A stretch of DNA of 64,000 bases from a virus (Duplodnaviria; Heunggongvirae; Uroviricota; Caudoviricetes), in the IMG/VR virus record IMGVR_UViG_3300026549_001031; one strand, written 5' to 3'. The notes beneath the pieces were generated by a model, which saw only the letters and a program-made list of their open reading frames with translations, searched no databases and was not told where the DNA came from. Position numbers and translations under genes: made by a program. Below are positions 29,175-57,083 of the stretch, one piece after another. The stretch's first letter is position 1, and every line of letters starts with the position of its first letter.

Positions 29175-29867
29175 ATGAAAGAGGCATTTAGTGAGTTTGA
29201 AAAGCCTAGTGTGGCAGTAGATACAGTAATCTTAAGAGTTAAAGACATAGCTGAAAGAGATGGTAAACGCTTGGTACCTAAGATGGTTCAGGTGTTACTT
29301 GTTAGAAAGCAGGGTAGTAAGAAATGGCAACTTCCTGGAACTATTGTAAGACTTGGAGAAACTTCAATGAATGCAATAGAAAGAAAACTTGGAGCAGAGG
29401 TTGTTGAGAATGGGGCATTTGAACAGCTTTATACAGTAGACAATAACGTTGATAGGGATGAAAGAGGTCATGTGATTTCTATTGTTTATCTTGATATGTT
29501 AAAACCTAACAGCAAATCAAAAGATTTAGACCTTGAGGGATATGATGTACAGTGGTTTTGGGTAAGCAGAGACAGATACTTTATGAATGTTGCATCTCAG
29601 GAAATATTAGATGAGCTTGCATATGATCACAAGAGCATTATAAGTGATGCAATAGACAGAATAAAAGGTAAACTGCTATATACAGATATAGGGTTTAACT
29701 TTGTAGGAGAAACCTTTACAGTAAGAGAACTAGAGTATACATTTGAGGCTTTGAATGAATACAAGATTCCTGGTTTCAGACGATTGATTTCAGATAGAAT
29801 CACTGGTACTGGAGAAATGAGCAAGGGAAATGCCTTTAGACCAGCAGAGGTTTATAGGAAAGCATAG
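29175..29867 (+). CDS. nrtR: NrtR-family regulator (degenerate Nudix + winged HTH)
   Basis: PSVAVDTVI, WQLPG, EQLYT..RDERGHVIS, LAYDH, FTVREL, FRR, RPAEVY; Nudix REuxEE motif lost. Confidence 0.85.
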   Translation: MKEAFSEFEKPSVAVDTVILRVKDIAERDGKRLVPKMVQVLLVRKQGSKKWQLPGTIVRLGETSMNAIERKLGAEVVENGAFEQLYTVDNNVDRDERGHVISIVYLDMLKPNSKSKDLDLEGYDVQWFWVSRDRYFMNVASQEILDELAYDHKSIISDAIDRIKGKLLYTDIGFNFVGETFTVRELEYTFEALNEYKIPGFRRLISDRITGTGEMSKGNAFRPAEVYRKA

Positions 29868-33328: not shown

Positions 33329-35281
33329 ATGGATAGATTAGTTAGAGTTGCAACTATTTCTCCTCGTGTACATGTGGGAAATGTGGATGCTAACATTAAT
33401 GAAATCAAAGAGGCATATGAAAAACTTGTAAACAAGCACGGTAATGTGAATATCGTGGTTACACCTGAACTTAGCTTATGTGGGTATACTGCACAGGATC
33501 TGATGTTTAATCAGTCAATATCTGATTACTTTGCAGAGGATAAAATTACAGCTAGCATTGATGCATTGATCAATTCAGTGCATTATGGAACAATACTTGT
33601 AGTTGGTGCTCCTGTTGTAGTAAATAATGCAATGTATAATTGTGCTATTATCATTGCAGCAGGTGAGGTACTTGGGGTTGCTCCTAAATGTTACTTACCT
33701 AATTACAATGAGTTCTATGAAAAAAGATGGTTTAACAGTGGTTTTGATGCTCAAACAACATCAATTAAACTTTGGAGACAGCAGGTACCTTTTGGTAGAT
33801 CATTGGTGTTTAATACTGGAGACTTCAAGTTTGGAGTAGAACTTTGTGAAGATTTATGGGCACCTAATCCTCCTTCAGTAGACATGGCACTTAATGGGGC
33901 AGAGGTAATTCTTAATCTGTCAGCAAGTAATGAGACCATTGGTAAAAGTGATTACAGACGTTCATTAGTAGCACAGCAGAGTGCTAGATGCATTTGTGGA
34001 TATGTGTATTGCTCAGCAGGCAGTAGTGAGAGTACATCTGATATTGTGTTTAGTGGGCATAGCATGATTGCAGAGAATGGTTCAATTCTTTCAGAAGCAC
34101 GGTTGTTTGATAAGAACAATAGTATTCTTGTGAATGACATTGATCTCAACAAGATTAGACACGATAGAATGGTTAATAAAACATTTACATTTGGACCTAA
34201 AGAGTCATTGAGAGAGATCCGATTAAAATGTAGACATAGACAGGTTGGCGGCGGTTACAGACATAACTATGATCATACAATAAGAGAAATCAGCATTACA
34301 CCTTTTGTACCTAGACTTACAGAGTCAGATAAGAGATGTGATGAGATCTTTAACATTCAGACAGAGGCACTGGCAAGAAGATGGGAGAGCATTGGTTGTG
34401 AAAATGCAGTCATTGGTGTTTCAGGTGGTTTAGACAGTACACTTGCATTACTGGTTGCAGTTGGGGCAGCTGATAAACTTGGATATGATCATAGCAGAGT
34501 ATTAGGTATTACAATGCCTTGTTTTGGAACAACATCAAGAACAAAGAGTAATGCAGTGAAACTCATGGATGTGCTTGGTGTTTCATCTAGAGAGATCGAT
34601 ATTAAGGCAAGTGTTAAGCAGCACTTAAAAGATATTGGACTTTCAGAGGATGATAGAAGCCTTGCTTATGAAAATGCACAGGCACGTGAAAGAACACAGA
34701 TACTTATGGATATTGCAAATATGAGCAGTGGATTTGTGATTGGTACAGGAGATTTAAGTGAACTTGCATTAGGGTGGTGTACTTATAATGGGGATCATAT
34801 GTCAATGTATGGTGCGAACAGCAGTATACCTAAGACATTAGTAAGGACACTGGTTGAAAGAGTAGGCTTAACAATAGCAAACACTTTTGATAGGGATGCA
34901 CGTAGTGAGATGATTGATTGCATCAAAGACATTCTTGCAACACCTGTTTCACCTGAATTACTTCCTCCTTCAGAAGATGGCACTATTGCTCAGCTTACAG
35001 AAGATAGTGTTGGACCTTATGTATTAAACGATTTCTTCCTGTATTATACATTAAGGTTTGGGTTTAGCAGAGAAATGATCATTTCATATGCAGTTGAGGC
35101 ATGTCAACAGAGTGAGAATTACAAGTATTCAGAGGGAGAGATCACTTATTGGTTAGATAAGTTCATTAAGAGATTCAAGAGGGCACAGTTCAAACGTAAC
35201 TGTTGTCCTGATGGAATCAAGGTAGGTTCAGTATCACTTAGTCCTCGTGGAGATTGGCGGATGGCAAGTGAAGTAGAATAA
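33329..35281 (+). CDS. nadE: Glutamine-dependent NAD+ synthetase
   Basis: Nitrilase domain (TPELSLCGY, PKCYLPNYNEFYEKRWF, ELCEDLW) + synthetase domain (GVSGGLDS, ENAQARER, GTGDLSE, SPELLP, SLSPRGDWRM). Confidence 0.95.
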   Translation: MDRLVRVATISPRVHVGNVDANINEIKEAYEKLVNKHGNVNIVVTPELSLCGYTAQDLMFNQSISDYFAEDKITASIDALINSVHYGTILVVGAPVVVNNAMYNCAIIIAAGEVLGVAPKCYLPNYNEFYEKRWFNSGFDAQTTSIKLWRQQVPFGRSLVFNTGDFKFGVELCEDLWAPNPPSVDMALNGAEVILNLSASNETIGKSDYRRSLVAQQSARCICGYVYCSAGSSESTSDIVFSGHSMIAENGSILSEARLFDKNNSILVNDIDLNKIRHDRMVNKTFTFGPKESLREIRLKCRHRQVGGGYRHNYDHTIREISITPFVPRLTESDKRCDEIFNIQTEALARRWESIGCENAVIGVSGGLDSTLALLVAVGAADKLGYDHSRVLGITMPCFGTTSRTKSNAVKLMDVLGVSSREIDIKASVKQHLKDIGLSEDDRSLAYENAQARERTQILMDIANMSSGFVIGTGDLSELALGWCTYNGDHMSMYGANSSIPKTLVRTLVERVGLTIANTFDRDARSEMIDCIKDILATPVSPELLPPSEDGTIAQLTEDSVGPYVLNDFFLYYTLRFGFSREMIISYAVEACQQSENYKYSEGEITYWLDKFIKRFKRAQFKRNCCPDGIKVGSVSLSPRGDWRMASEVE

Positions 35282-35807: not shown

Positions 35808-36743
35808 ATGGCAAAATTTAGTAGAGACACCTTATATGCAGGAGTGATTGGTACAGCAATAGGTGATGCACTGGGAGTACACGTAGAGTTTAGAAATAGA
35901 GAAGCATTGAAGAAAAATCCTGTTACGGACATGATTGGGTATGGAACATGGAATGTACCAGCAGGTACATGGTCAGATGATACAAGCATGATGCTAGCAA
36001 CAGTGGATGGGCTGAACAAGGCAGGATACAATTTTGATGGAGGCACTGTAAATAAGTCACATATGGCATGTGAAATTATTGCATGCAACTTCATAGATTG
36101 GTTTGTGTCAGGTGAATTTGCAGTAGGACATAATAGGTTTGACTGTGGTAACACTTGTGGTAGAGCAATACATAAAATGTTACAGGGATATAACATTGAT
36201 GAGTGTGGTGTTACAGATGAAGATGCACAGGGCAATGGTAGTTTAATGAGGATATTTCCAGCAGTCTTTTGTGATGATGCTTGTACATTAAGAGCTAGTA
36301 GACTAACACATAATAATGATGTGTGTGACTCTGCTACAATGATGTTTAAGCATATTATACTGGAGATAATCAATAGTACAGGCAATAGGATAAGTAAGCA
36401 GAACATTATAAATAAAGCAATTAACAGTGTAAACGAGAAATACATGATCAATTTGTTTGGTGAGCATACTACAGAAATAAGTAAAGTTTCAGAAAAAGAT
36501 ATTGGATCATCTGGTTATGTAATAGATACATTGAAAGCTTCAATTTGGTGTTTTGTTACAACTGATAACTACAGTGAATGTGTGTTAAAAGCAGTAAATC
36601 TTGGAAATGACACTGATACTACAGCAGCTGTTGCAGGTTGTTTAGCAGGTGTTTATTATGGTATCAACAATATTCCTGAAAAGTGGATCAGTATGTTAAA
36701 TGACAGAGATCTACTTGAAAGAATATGTTACAATAAAAAATAA
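35808..36743 (+). CDS. ADP-ribosylglycohydrolase (DraG/ARH family)
   Basis: AIGDALG, GTWSDDT, GNGSLMR, LTH, SSGYV, AVNLGNDTDTTAAVAG. Confidence 0.93.
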   Translation: MAKFSRDTLYAGVIGTAIGDALGVHVEFRNREALKKNPVTDMIGYGTWNVPAGTWSDDTSMMLATVDGLNKAGYNFDGGTVNKSHMACEIIACNFIDWFVSGEFAVGHNRFDCGNTCGRAIHKMLQGYNIDECGVTDEDAQGNGSLMRIFPAVFCDDACTLRASRLTHNNDVCDSATMMFKHIILEIINSTGNRISKQNIINKAINSVNEKYMINLFGEHTTEISKVSEKDIGSSGYVIDTLKASIWCFVTTDNYSECVLKAVNLGNDTDTTAAVAGCLAGVYYGINNIPEKWISMLNDRDLLERICYNKK

Positions 36744-36763: not shown

Positions 36764-38350
36764 ATGAAGAAAGACATTACAAAAATGGACTTACTTGTGT
36801 CATTTGATACTACAGGCAGTATGTATCCTGTATTGTCACAGGTAAGAAGAGAGGTTGAGCAGTTTGTAAAAGATATGTTTGCAGAGTTTGCAGATCTCAG
36901 ACTTGGTATCATCGCTCATGGAGACTACTGTGATAAGGATGATCCTTATACAATTAGAGTCATGGACTTTACAAGAGATGAAGAGAGACTTTGTAAGTTT
37001 GTAAGAGAGACAGCACAGACATATGGAGGCGACGCTGATGAGTGTTATGAACTTGTATTGAATACAGCTCATAAAGAGCTGGAGTGGCGTGATGATGCTG
37101 ATAAGATCATGATTATGATTGGTGATGCATCACCACATAGTGTGAGTTATAGTATGAATAAAGATGGACTTGATTGGAGAAAAGAGGCAGACACATTAGC
37201 AGATAGAGGCATCAAGGTATTTGCAGTTCATGCACTTGCAGGTTGGAGGAGCTCATCCAGAGGATTCTACAAGGCAGTAGCAGAAAAGACATTGGGCATC
37301 TATTTAACACTTGATCAGTTTAATGAGATTGTTGATCTTATCAGAGCAACGGTATGTCAGCAGAGTGGTGAGGAAAGACTCAATGAGTTTGTCACAATCA
37401 TTAGAGATAATGGTAAAATGACACGTTCAATGGAAAACAACATTAAGCGTCTGCGTGGTGAGGAAGTAGAGGACACTTATGATTACTACAGAGATCATAC
37501 TACAAAGAGAAAGAGAACACATTCAAGCGGTGGTCATACAGATGAGGCAGTAGTAATTAAGGATATGGACGAGCTGGTGCCTGTAATGCCTGGTAGATTT
37601 CAGGTAATGACAGTTGATGAGAACTGTGACATTAAGGGATTCGTGACAGCCAATGGTATCGAATTCAAGAAGGGCAGAGGATTTTACGAGTTGACAAAGG
37701 CTGAAACAGTACAACAGTACAAAGAGATCATTATGCAGGATAGAGAGACAGGAGAAATGTTTAATGGATCTCAGGTAAGAGAAAAGTTAGGCTTGCAGCC
37801 TCAGACAGTAAAAGGTGGAGTGCATGAGAAGTTATATGCAAAAGATGCTAAAGAATTTAGGATCTTCGTTCAGAGTACCTCAGTTAACAGGAAGTTAATT
37901 GCTGGTACAACCTTCCTTTATGAGATTGCAGACCTGGAGGATGCAGGTACAGAGATTAAGGAAGAAGAAGCACCTGTAGAAAAGAAAGAAGCACCTGTCA
38001 AGGAGAAAGAGAAACATACAGAAAAGAAAGAGACTAAAAAAGATGGAAAGAAAAAGACTGGAGCAGTTAAGAAAAAAGATGATGCAGTCAAGAAAGAGAG
38101 AACCGCTACTAAGAAAAAGGCAGTTACGTCTGAAAAGAGAGCAGCAACAGCTGTAGATAAGAAAAAAGCAGCTGAATTAGCAGCAAAGATGCATTCATTA
38201 AAGAGCCTGAGCACGGCAATGGACAAGGTAAAGGATGGCGCTGAAAGATATCAGCATAGTCAGAACAAGAAGAATACAGAGTTCTTGAGAAACAACCTTA
38301 AAAAGACAATCGAGACAGCTCAGAAGTTGTTAGATGCTCTGGGAGAGTAA
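36764..38350 (+). CDS. vWA-domain protein with conserved C-terminal domain and Lys-rich tail
   Basis: MIDAS-like SFDTTGSM, GGDADECYE, IGDASPH; second domain FKKGRGFYE...FVQSTSVNRKL. Confidence 0.8.
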   Translation: MKKDITKMDLLVSFDTTGSMYPVLSQVRREVEQFVKDMFAEFADLRLGIIAHGDYCDKDDPYTIRVMDFTRDEERLCKFVRETAQTYGGDADECYELVLNTAHKELEWRDDADKIMIMIGDASPHSVSYSMNKDGLDWRKEADTLADRGIKVFAVHALAGWRSSSRGFYKAVAEKTLGIYLTLDQFNEIVDLIRATVCQQSGEERLNEFVTIIRDNGKMTRSMENNIKRLRGEEVEDTYDYYRDHTTKRKRTHSSGGHTDEAVVIKDMDELVPVMPGRFQVMTVDENCDIKGFVTANGIEFKKGRGFYELTKAETVQQYKEIIMQDRETGEMFNGSQVREKLGLQPQTVKGGVHEKLYAKDAKEFRIFVQSTSVNRKLIAGTTFLYEIADLEDAGTEIKEEEAPVEKKEAPVKEKEKHTEKKETKKDGKKKTGAVKKKDDAVKKERTATKKKAVTSEKRAATAVDKKKAAELAAKMHSLKSLSTAMDKVKDGAERYQHSQNKKNTEFLRNNLKKTIETAQKLLDALGE

Positions 38351-53082: not shown

Positions 53083-53259
53083 ATGAAAATATTGAGAGTG
53101 CAAAGTATTGAGTCAATGATAGACATGACTAAAAAAGATAATGGACCAGCTGAAATAAAAAGGGATACTAAGTCAGAAAAGGTAGATACATTTAATGCAA
53201 TGCTTAAGGCAGAGGAGAAAAAGTTAGATGACATTGAAAAGTGTAAAAGACATTCTTAA
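53083..53259 (+). CDS. Small hypothetical protein (58 aa)
   Basis: GAGG RBS, fills the gap and overlaps the next start; below ORF-track cutoff. Confidence 0.45.
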   Translation: MKILRVQSIESMIDMTKKDNGPAEIKRDTKSEKVDTFNAMLKAEEKKLDDIEKCKRHS

Positions 53260-54232
53260 TTGTAAGAAATACAATGAACTGTTTAGTAGTGACAGTAAAG
53301 AGGCTAAGAAGCAGTTTAGAGAGTATTGTAAGTTATATCACCCTGACTCTAATGATTCAGAAGAGGCAGCTAGGGTATTCGCTCATATCAATGAGATATA
53401 CAGTGCAGGCATGAGCACAACATCAGGTGGTTACAGTGGTAAAGAAGAGGTTACATTCAAAGATAAGGTGACTGGCAAGGGATTTATCTTGAATAATGCA
53501 CACAAGTTTGGGACAAGTACTTGTGTAGTTTATCACACTTTGACAAAGGTGGTATTTGTGTTTGACAAGCAGAAGTACTATGATAACTATATCAAGTCTG
53601 TCGAGAGTCTTAAGTATAAAGATTCTAACATGAAAAAAGAAATGGCAAGATACTTTCCTGTAATTAACAGACATTTTGAGACAGAGGATGGACAATTTGT
53701 AATTGTAATCAACAAGACAACTGAAGTACTTAACCTTGGGGAAATTTACAAGGCATATGCATTAAAGGGAGAGAAAATTCCTGGTACTCAGGTGGCTTGG
53801 ATGATTAACAGGTTATATAATTTAACCTGCTATAACAATTATGTGATGCACAGAGCGTTTAATGGTTTATCACTTGAAAATTTGTGGGTATCACCTGAAA
53901 TGCATAGCATTTTGTTACTTGGCGGTAATGAATTTGCAGTTAAGCAGGGAGAGAAGATGATTGGCGTACCTGCTGATGTATACGATACAATGCAGATTAA
54001 GACTAAATCAAATAAGATTTCAAGTATCAGCACTGATTTAGAGAGCATCAGGGCACTTGGAAGAAAACTTTGTGCAGGTAATAAAGATGTTGAACTGCTA
54101 TATGAATTTTTCAATCATGGAGTTAAAGAGGCAGACCCATTGAAAGAATGGAAGGCTTATGAGAAAGTAATGGTTGAGCAGTTTGGTAAAAGACAGTTTA
54201 TTGTATGGGATGATGTACCATACACTAAATAA
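53228..54232 (+). CDS. J-domain (HPD) fused to degenerate protein-kinase-like domain
   Basis: FREYCKLYHPD..SEEA..VF..IN; C-terminal VAWMINRL, FNGLSLENLWV, LLLGG. Confidence 0.65.
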   Translation: MTLKSVKDILNCKKYNELFSSDSKEAKKQFREYCKLYHPDSNDSEEAARVFAHINEIYSAGMSTTSGGYSGKEEVTFKDKVTGKGFILNNAHKFGTSTCVVYHTLTKVVFVFDKQKYYDNYIKSVESLKYKDSNMKKEMARYFPVINRHFETEDGQFVIVINKTTEVLNLGEIYKAYALKGEKIPGTQVAWMINRLYNLTCYNNYVMHRAFNGLSLENLWVSPEMHSILLLGGNEFAVKQGEKMIGVPADVYDTMQIKTKSNKISSISTDLESIRALGRKLCAGNKDVELLYEFFNHGVKEADPLKEWKAYEKVMVEQFGKRQFIVWDDVPYTK

Positions 54233-54267
54233 AGTATTACAATAAAAAGAAAGAGAGGAACAATAAT

Positions 54268-55179
54268 ATGGGTGGAGGATCATGGAAATCATCAGATTGG
54301 GAGTCATTCAAGTCAGTAAGTGGCATTTCACATGCAAGAAGCGCTCATGATATTTACAAGATTCATTCAACAAAGAAGGAATACTTACCTTATGGAGTAA
54401 TGAGAGAAAGCAGAAGCACAGAAGAGCATCCTAACAGCACACCTATCATTATTGGTTTGGATGTGACAGGTTCAATGAGCAGCTTGCTTAAGATTATGGT
54501 AGATAAGCTTGGAGAAACAATGACACAGATCTACAAGAGAGAATGTGTTGCAGATCCACAGATTTGTTTTGCAGCTATTGATGATTATATTACATCAGAG
54601 AATGAATGTTTACAGGTTACTCAGTTTGAGTCAGACATCAGGATTGCAGAGCAGATGCGTGAGTTAAAGTTTATTGAGCGTGGCGGTGGAAATAACTGGG
54701 AGAGTTATGCATTGGCTTGGTACTTTGCAGCAAGACATACTGATTGTGATGCATTCAAAGATGGAAGAAAGGGCATCCTGATTACAATTGGTGATGATGG
54801 TTGTCAGCCTACAATCAGCAAGGAAGAAGTTAAGACAGTGTTTGGTGATGATCTTGACAGTGACATGAGTAGAGATGAGCTTCTGAGTGAAGTAAACAGA
54901 CACTGGGAAGTATTTCATATTACAATGGCAGATGGAATGTCATACACTGAAGAATTGGATGAGGAATGGGAAGGCATCCTTGGTAATCACAGTATTGTGG
55001 TTAAGGACGCTGATAAAATTCCAGAAGTCATTGTAAGTTTAATTGAGAGACTTGCAGGTACAGACCTCAGCACAATTACAAAGTCTTGGGATCACAGTAC
55101 AGGACTTGTTGTGGCTGATGCACTTAAGAATTTTGATCTTGCACTTTCAGGTGGAAAGACAGGACTTGTAGAGTTTTAA
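54268..55179 (+). CDS. vWA-domain protein
   Basis: MGGGSW start, IIIGLDVTGSMS, LQVTQFESD, GGGNNWESY, ITIGDD. Confidence 0.85.
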   Translation: MGGGSWKSSDWESFKSVSGISHARSAHDIYKIHSTKKEYLPYGVMRESRSTEEHPNSTPIIIGLDVTGSMSSLLKIMVDKLGETMTQIYKRECVADPQICFAAIDDYITSENECLQVTQFESDIRIAEQMRELKFIERGGGNNWESYALAWYFAARHTDCDAFKDGRKGILITIGDDGCQPTISKEEVKTVFGDDLDSDMSRDELLSEVNRHWEVFHITMADGMSYTEELDEEWEGILGNHSIVVKDADKIPEVIVSLIERLAGTDLSTITKSWDHSTGLVVADALKNFDLALSGGKTGLVEF

Positions 55180-55275
55180 GAGAATACAGAATTGTTGATG
55201 TGTGGTGCAGTTGTTATTTAATGACTGCACCACATTTAATATAATTAGCATGGTTAATATAGGAGGGCAATAAGA

Positions 55276-56583
55276 ATGGAAGAGTTAGTCATTAAGGCAG
55301 TTATTGGAGCAGGATATGGAGATGAGGGAAAGGGTTTAATGACCGATTACTTTTGTAATAAGGTCAAACTATTTGGGGAAGATAACAAAGTGTTAAACAT
55401 TAAGTTTAATGGTGGGGCACAGGCAGGTCATACAGTGTCGCGTATAGACAAGAGAGAAGGGCAGTACAAACATTGGGTATTTGCACAGTATGGTGCTGGC
55501 ACATTCACTGGGGCTGATACATACTTAGCAAAAGAGTTTAATGTGAACATTGCTCTTTTATTAAAAGAGCATGACATTTTAGCAAAGGAGTTTGGGGTTA
55601 ATACTAAAGTATACATTGATGGACAATGTAGGGCAGTATTACCTATTGATATTGAACTTAACAAACTTATTGAGGACACCAGAGATGAAAAGAGACATGG
55701 AAGTTGTGGCTTAGGAGTTTATGAGACATGGCATAGAAACGAATGGTTGGGCAGACTCACAATTCAAGATATTATTGAAACATACATGGATGGAAAAGCA
55801 GGTGAGCAGGAACTTCTTGGTAAGTTGCAAGGAGTTATGCTGGAATACATTGAAGTTAGAGAAGATGAGCTTCATGGAGAGTTTGGAGACCAGATAACTG
55901 ATGGGCTTAACAGACTGAAGGATCATGTGAAAGATTATGCAGAATCGTTTATAAAAGAGGTTGCTAGCTTTGTTGAAAGTGAGAGTTTCGAGATTAGAAA
56001 TATTAAATACCTTGTAAATGAATATAAAGCATTGGTATTTGAAGGTGCTCAGGGATTGGAAATCAGCATGAACACTCTGGAAAACGCACCTCATTTAACT
56101 CCTTCTGATACAGGCATCTGGAATGTGCTGGATATCATTAGAGATATTAAGAGTGATCCTAGTCATAAATATAACTTGGACTTTGAGATTTGTTATGTTA
56201 CAAGAAGTTACAAAACAAGACATGGTAATGGACCTTTCAAAGAATATGATTCAAACATTAAAGAAGAGTTCAACTTGTATGATATGACAAATGTCTATAA
56301 TCATTATCAGGGAGGACTTAAATATGGAAATGTAGACATCGAGAGAATGGCAGATATCATTAAAAGAGAGAATGTTAAGATTGACAGAACACTAAAGATT
56401 GGTAAGCATGACAATACTAAACTGTCATTAGCAGTGACACATTTAGATCAAACAAATGGTTTAATGTCCTCAACACAGGGATTGGTGTTAGTCAATAGGG
56501 ATTTATGTGATGTACTTGGTTTAGACGGTAACTTATACAGATCATATGGAGATAAAGCATCAGATATAATTGAGTTATATTAG
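55276..56583 (+). CDS. Divergent adenylosuccinate synthetase (PurA-like) family protein
   Basis: GYGDEGKG, GGAQAGHTV, HGSCGLG, FEGAQG, YKTRHGNGPF, THLD; Asp-binding TTGR loop absent. Confidence 0.85.
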   Translation: MEELVIKAVIGAGYGDEGKGLMTDYFCNKVKLFGEDNKVLNIKFNGGAQAGHTVSRIDKREGQYKHWVFAQYGAGTFTGADTYLAKEFNVNIALLLKEHDILAKEFGVNTKVYIDGQCRAVLPIDIELNKLIEDTRDEKRHGSCGLGVYETWHRNEWLGRLTIQDIIETYMDGKAGEQELLGKLQGVMLEYIEVREDELHGEFGDQITDGLNRLKDHVKDYAESFIKEVASFVESESFEIRNIKYLVNEYKALVFEGAQGLEISMNTLENAPHLTPSDTGIWNVLDIIRDIKSDPSHKYNLDFEICYVTRSYKTRHGNGPFKEYDSNIKEEFNLYDMTNVYNHYQGGLKYGNVDIERMADIIKRENVKIDRTLKIGKHDNTKLSLAVTHLDQTNGLMSSTQGLVLVNRDLCDVLGLDGNLYRSYGDKASDIIELY

Positions 56584-56708
56584 GAATAAGCATACTAAAA
56601 ATAATGAGGCAGTGACTTAAATTGGTCACTGCCTTTTTTAGTACTTGTGTTTGAATAGAGAACAAGTTTTTAATTTTTTAATTATTATTTTGAAAGGAAG
56701 TAAGTATT

Positions 56709-57083
56709 ATGGGATATAGAGAGGACTTTTTCAAAGCAAACCCTGGCACTAAATTACCTGGTAGGCGTGGCACGTATTGGAAATGCGTTAATTGTGGCGG
56801 TTGGTTTCCTAAGAGTGAAATAGACGTCGACCATCGCGTAGCTAAACGACTTGGCGGAACTGATGATATTTGGAATCTTCAGAGCATGTGCAAACACTGT
56901 AATCGCAGTAAAAGGGAGAGAAGTTCAGGTACAGAAGTTGCAGAGACACTGATAAGTGCAGGGGTTTCAGGACTTGCATCAGGTGGTTTAGAGGGATCAC
57001 TTGGAAATCTAGGTAAACTTGGTAAGTCAGTATTGACACAGAAAGCAAAAGATGCTTTAGGCATTAAATACAGGAGAAGGTAG
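56709..57083 (+). CDS. Small HNH endonuclease (paralog B)
   Basis: CVNC...DVDHRVAKRLGGTDDIWNLQSMCKHCN. Confidence 0.88.
   Translation: MGYREDFFKANPGTKLPGRRGTYWKCVNCGGWFPKSEIDVDHRVAKRLGGTDDIWNLQSMCKHCNRSKRERSSGTEVAETLISAGVSGLASGGLEGSLGNLGKLGKSVLTQKAKDALGIKYRRR

Follow-up and report, generated by a model that had tools for sequence, protein, structure and literature searches.

The three adjacent genes at 53228-56583 of the window, the 64,000-nucleotide stretch of DNA analyzed here, form a single operon in a giant phage-like element from the gut and very probably belong to a large conserved module. They encode, in order, a J-domain pseudokinase, a von Willebrand factor A (vWA)-fold protein and an enzyme of the PurA superfamily that, judged by sequence, is neither PurA nor PurZ and represents a third clade. 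The module has very many members and is well conserved, and a literature search for the J-pseudokinase/vWA/PurA-like combination found no description of it. The favored reading, held at even odds, is an accessory module for NAD+/ADP-ribose stress that in phages would be directed against NAD+-depleting immunity.

Three same-strand open reading frames (53228-54232, 54268-55179 and 55276-56583, all on the plus strand) form one transcription unit as read from the sequence, which agrees with the three adjacent genes proposed by the first-pass annotation. Each gene is preceded by a Shine-Dalgarno-like site, and an intrinsic-terminator-like hairpin with a 12-bp stem followed by a T-run (56606-56635, plus strand) lies after the last stop codon and closes the unit. 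The vWA and PurA-like genes are separated by 96 bp, which contain a perfect 11-bp inverted repeat, TGTGGTGCAGT / ACTGCACCACA, with a 12-nt loop (55201-55234, plus strand); this repeat is a possible attenuator or RNA-processing site. A megablast search of the triad against phage records returned no match.

The 435-residue product of the third gene (55276-56583) was assigned to the PurA superfamily by Pfam, its motifs and its position in a tree, and is predicted to be a GTP-dependent ligase. The Pfam Adenylsucc_synt profile (PF00709) matches with E = 5.8e-23, but the match spans no more than positions 1-273 of the 416-position profile. The protein was aligned with E. coli PurA and phiVC8 PurZ, and the motif changes reported in the first-pass annotation were all reproduced. 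The GDEGKG and AGHT motifs with the catalytic Asp and His are retained and invariant in the family. GGHNAGHT of PurA becomes GGAQAGHT (GGAQ for GGHN), IGTTGRGIG becomes HGSCGLGVY (HGSCG for GTTG), TKLD becomes THLD, and the aspartate-binding loop is lost, with TTGRRRRTGW replaced by (T)NVYNHYQGGL-KYG. These replacement motifs are not the product of decay: members of the family carry them with little or no variation. The catalytic-type Asp, Lys, His and Gln of PurA are kept, and the catalytic-type residues of the window protein align with Asp13 and His41 of the E. coli enzyme. The PurA ligands for the IMP 5'-phosphate, Asn38 and Thr129, correspond to Gln49 and Cys144, both family-invariant. Arg131 is replaced by Leu and the loop containing Thr300/Thr301, Arg303 and Arg305 is replaced by TNxxNxYQG; we take these PurA residues to be the aspartate ligands of the E. 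coli enzyme. In eight homologues an intein is inserted directly behind the catalytic His, which points to an active site under constraint. A search for informative domain fusions among the longer homologues yielded only inteins and unannotated extensions.

Classification models and phylogeny place the enzyme outside both named families. It scores 64.2 bits against the PurA equivalog TIGR00184 (cut-off 395.55) and 37.6 bits against the PurZ model NF038379 (cut-off 300). The phylogenetic comparison suggested by the first-pass annotation was run as a quick tree search, and the PurA-like proteins form a clade of their own (starred) that is separate from both PurA and PurZ. The PurZ of phiVC8 has GSTGKG, its Ser standing where the window protein, with GDEGKG, has the catalytic Asp. 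The earlier exclusion of PurZ holds, and the model scores and the tree exclude PurA as well. The family is large, with 4,810 clusters at 50% identity at E ≤ 1e-3 and 1,236 at E ≤ 1e-30. Its members are mislabeled in databases as adenylosuccinate synthetase or PurZ, and the best PHROG match of the window protein is PHROG 1211, a group that includes PurZ.

The retained residues suggest that the enzyme still binds GTP and uses PurA-type chemistry, in which GTP would phosphorylate a nucleotide-type substrate at an oxo or hydroxyl group and a nitrogen nucleophile would then carry out the displacement. The nucleophile would not be aspartate, and the site for the substrate 5'-phosphate appears altered. 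From the replacement of the aspartate loop by a different, conserved loop we infer a different second substrate. The loop exchange that underlay the earlier proposal of another amine acceptor is thus borne out, and the new acceptor is its natural reading. An active ligase with a non-aspartate acceptor is the likely function predicted from these residues.

The second gene (54268-55179) encodes a 303-residue protein without a Pfam match that hits phrog_2971 in PHROGs with E = 1e-45. A sequence search of the PDB found nothing for this protein. Its AF2 model (pLDDT 92.2) matches integrin I-domains, SpaC and the MIDAS domain of MDN1/Rea1 in Foldseek. The predicted metal site is intact: residues D65-x-T67-G68-S69 and G175-D176 are invariant among 70 homologues and read as a DxTxS variant of the DxSxS...T...D MIDAS pattern, consistent with the modeled vWA fold. 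The vWA protein would be the obligatory partner of the enzyme, acting as an adaptor or regulator through this site.

The first gene (53228-54232) encodes a 334-residue protein that was assigned from Pfam DnaJ, AF2/Foldseek and a family alignment. The DnaJ match (E = 6.7e-8, 33 bits against a cut-off of 27.8) and the HPD tripeptide at residues 38-40 indicate a J domain at approximately residues 5-65, and H38 and D40 are invariant in an alignment of 51 family sequences. The AF2 model (pLDDT 92.9) shows the J domain joined to a protein kinase fold. Its top Foldseek matches are a J-PKAc chimera, IRAK4 and GSK3, and the kinase fold matches IRAK4, GSK3 and PKA with a probability of 1.00. The same alignment supports the earlier view that this kinase-like protein is a pseudokinase. 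The β3 Lys and the Gly-rich loop are not conserved, the catalytic loop reads H-N-G...N in place of HRD...N without the HRD Asp, and the DFG motif with its Asp is replaced by GGWW in the family and by GGNEF in the window copy. Kinases of the active type, with GQGGMG, VVK, YRD and DFG, occupy this position in two Melainabacteria loci. The J-domain pseudokinase would recruit DnaK/Hsp70 of the host, with either the complex or a client as its destination.

A survey of 163 loci, 80 of them bacterial and 80 viral, defined the conserved part of the module. The invariant core is the vWA gene followed by the PurA-like gene, which are directly adjacent in this order in 156 of the 163 loci and usually lie 2-40 bp apart. 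The gene ahead of the core varies between the J-pseudokinase (70/163), an unrelated acidic protein of ~205 residues (73/163) and an active kinase. The three-gene synteny suggested by the first-pass annotation therefore recurs elsewhere, with the vWA/PurA-like pair as its strict unit and the J-pseudokinase as a frequent companion. A single-sequence scan of viral contigs detected no relative, and an alignment-based scan detected >510. Its carriers, phages and bacteria, number in the hundreds and include mycobacteriophages, Rhizobium and Vibrio phages, gut megaphages and many bacterial genomes; in a cluster C mycobacteriophage the genes are gp259-261, and Ruminococcus and Desulfitobacterium are among the bacteria. 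Adenylosuccinate-synthetase genes that lie beside DarT-like ARTs (PMC12522546) and the nrtX-nrtY genes of PMC2330246 are candidate further members of the family. PADLOC defense models did not match any of the proteins. Five host genomes all encode a canonical PurA (508-599 bits), NadE, NadD, NadA and a NAPRTase-family gene, and the module is therefore accessory in these hosts.

NrtR is an ADP-ribose-sensing NAD regulator. A Nudix plus NrtR_WHD regulator is adjacent to the module in 51 of 80 bacterial loci and in 0 of 80 viral loci. NrtR regulons usually contain NAD biosynthesis genes, and pathways unrelated to NAD, pentose use among them, are also under regulators of this family (PMC2330246). 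A 19-bp palindrome, TGTTATTATGATAATAACA, which ~17 Oscillospiraceae loci carry ~95 bp upstream of their J gene, is a candidate NrtR operator. Only near-perfect copies of this palindrome are meaningful, because a search with 2 mismatches is noisy and gives 277 background matches in 1.69 Mb.

The neighboring genes point in the same metabolic direction. The module lies in one operon with Adps-like, Namat, nicotinamidase-like (PncA-like) and PARG-like genes in some bacteria and phages; the operon at locus L035 consists of NrtR, Prs-like, isochorismatase, Namat, PARG-like, J, vWA and PurA-like genes, and locus L064 is similar. The NAMPT-like neighbor aligns to the Namat structures 9W5X/9W5W with 626 bits compared to ~200 bits for true NAMPTs (PMC12774641), and this Namat cluster is present in 12 loci, 6 of them viral. 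PRTase-like and NMNAT/Nudix genes are located upstream of the module in a Rhizobium phage, and a NADAR gene is upstream in a Vibrio phage. The window has its own NrtR, NadE and ADP-ribosylglycohydrolase genes at 29-37 kb, and the triad is 15-24 kb away from them. The ACTTA-N15-TAAGT repeat, a putative NrtR-type site that precedes the NrtR and NadE units of the element, is absent upstream of the triad, and NrtR control of the triad in this element is therefore without support.

NrtR control together with the Adps-like, Namat, PncA-like and PARG-like operons leads us to infer a role for the module in NAD+/ADP-ribose metabolism, and a tie of this kind is probable. In the bacterial context NrtR, the NARP1 enzymes, and the PARG-like and PncA-like genes point to this metabolism rather than to the generic nucleotide- or protein-modification system proposed in the first-pass annotation. 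The NAD link is one of guilt by association. Running counter to it, the triad of the window lies apart from the NAD genes and lacks the putative NrtR-type repeat, NrtR is absent from all 80 viral loci and Namat is present in 6 only, NrtR-family regulators have non-NAD targets too, a small-molecule role leaves the need for a vWA protein and a chaperone-recruiting pseudokinase unexplained, and co-occurrence with NARP1 could reflect redundancy or an unrelated shared regulon.

NAD+ depletion is among the commonest bacterial anti-phage strategies, and to our knowledge only three phage pathways that rebuild NAD+ have been described. In the NAD+/ADP-ribose stress reading, the genomic context suggests that breakdown of NAD+, with the ensuing rise in ADP-ribose, induces the module, whose task would be to replenish or safeguard the pool of NAD+ and adenine nucleotides. 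Bacteria would use it in this way under stress. In phages it would counter NAD+-depleting immunity, alongside or instead of NARP1, and counter-defense is put forward tentatively as the phage role.

The strongest rival, which takes up the protein side chain suggested as an acceptor in the first-pass annotation and is speculative, is a nucleotide-protein ligase, in which an activated purine nucleotide is joined to a protein amine while the vWA MIDAS holds the target and the J-pseudokinase/DnaK presents it. The exchange of the aspartate loop for a polar/aromatic loop with loss of Arg131, Arg303 and Arg305 is compatible with this scheme, as are the obligatory partner with its protein-binding MIDAS domain, the Hsp70-recruiting partner, and the nearby PARG-like and ARH genes, whose products remove protein modifications. 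This function is nevertheless unlikely: loci differ in the third partner or lack one, which means that presentation by a chaperone cannot be essential, and we know of no PurA-family enzyme that acts on proteins.

A more specific version of the NAD+ reading casts the vWA/PurA-like pair as a fourth NAD+ route that joins a GTP-activated NAD-breakdown product to a non-aspartate nitrogen nucleophile, and is regarded as speculative and rather improbable. The substrate would be ADP-ribose or an adenine dinucleotide damaged by deamination or in some other way, the nucleophile could be nicotinamide, for example, bound in the same active site, and NAD+ would be rebuilt or repaired in one step. In bacteria such a route would be under ADP-ribose/NrtR control, and hundreds of large phages would use it for counter-defense; its activity would be gated by the vWA protein together with the Hsp70-recruiting pseudokinase.

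The PurA-like protein could instead be a non-catalytic or regulatory GTP switch that works with the vWA protein as a MoxR/vWA-type chaperone pair or as a sensor, or belongs to a defense system. Pairs of an NTPase and a vWA protein are a common chaperone design, and the AbiH gene that adjoins the module in Desulfitobacterium would suit a defense part, but the invariance of the catalytic Asp, His and Gln and of the substrate-pocket residues, the lack of PADLOC matches, and the presence of the module in both bacteria and their phages, as with salvage genes, make a switch improbable. A PurZ-like role, with the enzyme making modified purine (deoxy)nucleotides that enter the phage genome or the nucleotide pool, is very improbable. 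Large phages often modify their own DNA and PHROG 1211 is the best match, but the catalytic Asp is kept, the PurZ model score is far below its cut-off, the clade is separate, and the bacterial chromosomal copies are under NrtR and lack DNA-replication partners.

A gap-filling NAD biosynthetic enzyme, such as a GTP-dependent amidating substitute for NadE, was considered because PurA-fold relatives amidate oxo or carboxyl groups. The usual presence of NAD biosynthesis genes in NrtR regulons also fits such an enzyme (PMC2330246). The host-genome checks led to its rejection as highly improbable, since NadE, NadD, NadA and the NAPRTase-family gene are present in 5/5 host genomes and the window has a NadE of its own. 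An ordinary or back-up adenylosuccinate synthetase, as the PF00709 match and database naming would have it, was rejected by the same checks as extremely improbable given the PurA model score, the lost aspartate ligands and a separate canonical PurA in 5/5 hosts.

Identifying the substrate of the PurA-like enzyme would give the PurA superfamily a further reaction and would probably also reveal a new player in NAD+/ADP-ribose homeostasis and phage counter-defense. It would account, too, for the uncommon company that a metabolic-type ligase keeps here, namely a vWA protein and an Hsp70 co-chaperone.

PurA (EC 6.3.4.4; E. coli, PDB 1ADE and related) has the same fold as the window enzyme over the N-terminal two thirds and shares the GDEGKG, AGHT, FEGAQG and TR(V/H)GxGPF motifs and the guanine-specificity Asp of (K/H)LD. 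The window enzyme differs from PurA in having neither the TTGRxRR aspartate loop nor Arg131, in missing ~60 residues of the C-terminal region, in its constant pairing with a vWA protein, and in coexisting with a true PurA in its hosts. PurZ of phiVC8, likewise a paralogue of PurA carried by a phage, also uses substrates differently from PurA and belongs to the same PHROG, but it has GSTGKG, lacks the GG of GGxxAGHT and falls in a distinct clade with 100% support. PurZ keeps aspartate as a substrate.

NARP1 (Adps plus Namat), NARP2 and NARP3 resemble the module in occurring in both phages and bacteria (PMC12774641, PMC13464706). NARP1 also shares one operon with it, through Adps-like and Namat genes, in 9-12 loci, and an ADP-ribose link through NrtR. 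NARP3, which consists of PnuC and NadR, was rejected as the identity of the module. The three proteins share no homology with the NARP enzymes, and most loci carry the module without NARP genes. The PRPS-like ADPR pyrophosphokinase and the NAMPT-like ADPR transferase that define NARP1 are not among the three window proteins; the Namat and Adps-like neighbors belong to other loci and are absent from the window.

The first protein resembles class C J-domain co-chaperones in its N-terminal J domain with HPD and its lack of Gly/Phe or zinc-finger regions. It differs from them in the fusion of the J domain to a kinase fold and in sharing an operon with vWA and PurA-like genes. Rki of the T4-like phage RB43 is reportedly a phage-encoded co-chaperone of this class. 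In the MoxR/vWA pairs CbbQ/CbbO and RavA/ViaA, a nucleotide-using protein is also encoded beside a MIDAS vWA protein, but the NTP-using partner is an AAA+ ATPase where the module has a PurA-type ligase. The TerY-P triad of a vWA protein, a kinase and a PP2C phosphatase likewise includes a kinase-family partner, whereas the module has no phosphatase and its kinase is usually dead.

Three adjacent open reading frames on the + strand at 53228-56583 encode a J-domain pseudokinase (gene 1, 334 aa, 53228-54232), a vWA protein (gene 2, 303 aa, 54268-55179) and a PurA-like protein (gene 3, 435 aa, 55276-56583), as the first-pass annotation had observed. The surrounding element has a G+C content of ~36%, a strongly positive GC skew and nearly all of its genes on one strand. 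Each gene of the triad is preceded by a Shine-Dalgarno-like site (GGAG, GAGAGGA and AGGAGG), the stop of the PurA-like gene is followed after 23 bases by a GC-rich 12-bp hairpin and then a T-run, and a free-standing HNH endonuclease gene, possibly a homing element, sits just past this terminator at 56709-57083. This arrangement indicates that the triad is one transcription unit. The vWA and PurA-like genes are separated by 96 bp, which contain an inverted repeat (55201-55234; two perfectly matched 11-bp arms around a 12-nt loop) and then a TATAAT-like box; the repeat could be an attenuator, a processing site or an internal promoter region.

Synteny was compared across 163 loci (80 genomic, 80 viral and 3 from reference phages). 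In 156 of them the vWA gene immediately precedes the PurA-like gene, mostly with a gap of 2-40 bp, and most of the other 7 are truncated by the end of a contig. The J-pseudokinase precedes the vWA gene in 70 loci (54 genomic, 15 viral and mycobacteriophage TinyTim, whose gp259 is likewise a J domain with a degenerate kinase), and an unrelated ~205-aa protein does so in 73, mostly from gut phages. The ~205-aa protein (for example at locus L125:6477-7091) combines low-complexity sequence rich in Met and Gly with a C-terminal tail that is strongly acidic; it had no match in Pfam, NCBIfam or PADLOC, and the Atlas clusters closest to it are viral proteins without a name. At two Melainabacteria loci (L080:5472-6683 and L053:5501-6679), the vWA and PurA-like genes are preceded by a Hanks kinase that lacks an N-terminal J domain and has all catalytic motifs (GQGGMG, VVK, YRD and DFG). 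These kinases are apparently active, which suggests an active kinase as the ancestor of the pseudokinase partner. The constant vWA pairing and the varying preceding gene define the conserved unit as vWA plus PurA-like, with an exchangeable third partner. Synteny of the triad elsewhere thus holds for the pair and extends to the J-pseudokinase only in the 70 loci.

Gene 2 had no match in Pfam and matched phrog_2971 with an E of 1e-45. Its AF2 model (pLDDT 92.2) has a vWA fold that Foldseek matches to integrin I-domains and the MDN1/Rea1 MIDAS domain, and residues D65-x-T67-G68-S69 and G175-D176 are invariant across 70 sequences. The J domain of gene 1 passes the Pfam cut-off and carries its HPD at residues 38-40. 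The AF2 model from 51 homologues (pLDDT 92.9) has a protein-kinase fold after the J domain, with the human DnaJ-PKA fusion as the best Foldseek match and IRAK4 and GSK3 next. The family alignment has neither a conserved Gly-rich loop nor a conserved β3 lysine; H-N-G...N occupies the kinase HRD...N position and GGWW the DFG position, where the window protein has F at the H and GGNEF, respectively. The absence or replacement of these motifs makes J-domain pseudokinase a fair name.

All-against-all clustering of the neighboring ORFs yielded one strongly recurrent neighbor, a ~280-aa protein present in 51 of the 80 genomic loci and in 0 of the 80 viral loci. Pfam identifies a Nudix domain and an NrtR winged helix, making it an NrtR-family regulator. 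It is placed directly upstream in the same direction, divergently or directly downstream, and accompanies J-pseudokinase-type and ~205-aa-type loci alike. The intergenic region between nrtR and the J gene at ~17 Oscillospiraceae loci contains a near-perfect, operator-like 19-bp palindrome, TGTTATTATGATAATAACA, ~95 bp before the J gene. The window encodes NrtR (29175-29867), glutamine-dependent NAD synthetase NadE (33329-35281), an ADP-ribosylglycohydrolase (35808-36743) and a second, 528-aa vWA protein (36764-38350) with a weak vWA match and distant similarity to the triad vWA (E 1e-7); no NrtR-type repeat was found in front of its triad.

The flanks of two bacterial loci are chromosomal, not prophage, with Lon proteases, EngB and a multicopper oxidase at one and an LRR surface protein, an ABC transporter and a two-component system at the second. 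A single operon of Clostridium sp. (L035:864-9212) encodes NrtR, PRPS-like, isochorismatase-like, NAMPT-like, PARG-like, J, vWA and PurA-like proteins, and that at L064:1376-9182 is similar, with an HD protein and without PARG. The NAMPT-like protein matches 9W5X/9W5W at 626 bits, compared to ~200 bits for true NAMPTs; these entries are Namat, the NARP1 nicotinamide ADP-ribose transferase (PMC12774641). Both NrtR-headed operons place NARP1-type genes and the module on bacterial chromosomes; NARP1 was described as a phage pathway. Among the 163 loci, Namat homologues are neighbors of the module in 12 (6 viral), isochorismatase in 10, a PRPS-like gene in 9 and a PARG-like gene in 4. Depositors' annotations place PRTase-like and NMNAT/Nudix genes upstream of the module in a Rhizobium phage and, in a Vibrio phage, an NADAR gene two positions upstream. 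An AbiH abortive-infection gene lies directly 3′ of the module in Desulfitobacterium sp. Sab5 (L009:9226-10224). RNA-repair-type genes (RNA ligase, Thg1-like and a DUF2828/DUF7788 vWA protein) often occur within 8 kb in viral loci (L156:11122-12336, L130:11097-11948 and L088:4139-5686), and the second gene upstream in TinyTim encodes a polynucleotide kinase.

The module is real, widespread and uncharacterized. An exhaustive profile-free search returned 4,810 PurA-like clusters (50% identity) at E ≤ 1e-3 and 1,236 at E ≤ 1e-30. Tblastn located the enzyme in 220 phage records, 201 of them cluster C mycobacteriophages and the others including Rhizobium Kleczkowskaviridae, Vibrio phages of ~191 kb and gut phages. 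Pattern scans located it at 358 sites in species-representative genomes of bacteria and archaea and at >510 in IMG/VR. No PADLOC defense model matched the module, and a full-text literature search found no description of it. NARP3 is PnuC plus NadR and not this module. The unknown genes nrtX-nrtY belong to NrtR regulons in Streptomyces, Frankia, Proteus and Hahella (Rodionov et al.; PMC2330246). In a survey of Legionella, a DarT-like ART family of Proteobacteria is reported to have an 'adenylosuccinate synthetase' neighbor in 60% of cases, sometimes a Nudix gene as well, and AAA and Nudix genes in P. aeruginosa (PMC12522546). Either this neighbor or nrtX-nrtY could belong to the gene 3 family, and the DarT-like neighborhood is a lead toward a wider tie between PurA-like enzymes and ADP-ribose biology.

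A role in NAD+/ADP-ribose stress and phage counter-defense is best supported. Rising ADP-ribose would induce the module, which would recover or protect the NAD+/adenylate pool, and phages may exploit this function against NAD+-depleting immunity. The vWA protein would be required as an adaptor or regulator, and the J-pseudokinase would recruit DnaK. A purely metabolic role leaves the need for the vWA and chaperone partners unexplained, so a nucleotide-protein ligase is retained as an improbable identity of the PurA-like enzyme. Housekeeping PurA and gap-filling in NAD synthesis are rejected: in addition to the paralogue (102-121 bits), 5/5 host genomes encode a canonical PurA (508-599 bits) as well as NadE, NadD, NadA and an NAPRTase-family gene, and the module is therefore accessory.

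For the NAD+/ADP-ribose stress role, we infer that the PurA-like enzyme would be an active GTP-dependent ligase that works by PurA chemistry, with a nucleophile other than aspartate and with changes in the site for the nucleotide phosphate. The first-pass interpretation, a GTP-dependent purine ligase with a non-aspartate acceptor working with both partners, is upheld in part: the re-tooled active site and the probable non-aspartate nucleophile stand, and the strict unit is vWA plus PurA-like. Q49, H141, S143, C144, T338, N339, N342, Q345 and H389 are invariant or nearly so in 20 diverse homologues, and retention of these novel residues indicates an active site that is re-tooled, not decaying. 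Eight homologues (P0381-P0388, 795-840 aa, contigs of up to 341 kb) are interrupted by a LAGLIDADG intein, which in P0383, the one aligned, lies exactly past the catalytic His (QAGH|T).

Gene 3 matches only the first two thirds of the Pfam Adenylsucc_synt profile, and its scores fall below the NCBI cut-offs: 64 bits where the PurA model requires 395, and 37.6 where the PurZ model requires 300. In a quick maximum-likelihood tree, PurZ (support 100), canonical PurA (98) and the gene 3 family (96) form separate clades, and the window protein groups within a 10-member subclade from very long contigs. Alignment with E. coli PurA and phiVC8 PurZ bore out every motif statement of the earlier reading, including that the enzyme is not PurZ. 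Gene 3 shares GDEGKG and AGHT with PurA, whereas PurZ has GSTGKG in place of the former. Relative to PurA, GGHN is replaced by GGAQ, GTTGRG by GSCGLG, TKLD by THLD and TTGRRRR by a TNxxNxYQG loop, and the C-terminal ~60 residues of PurA are missing.
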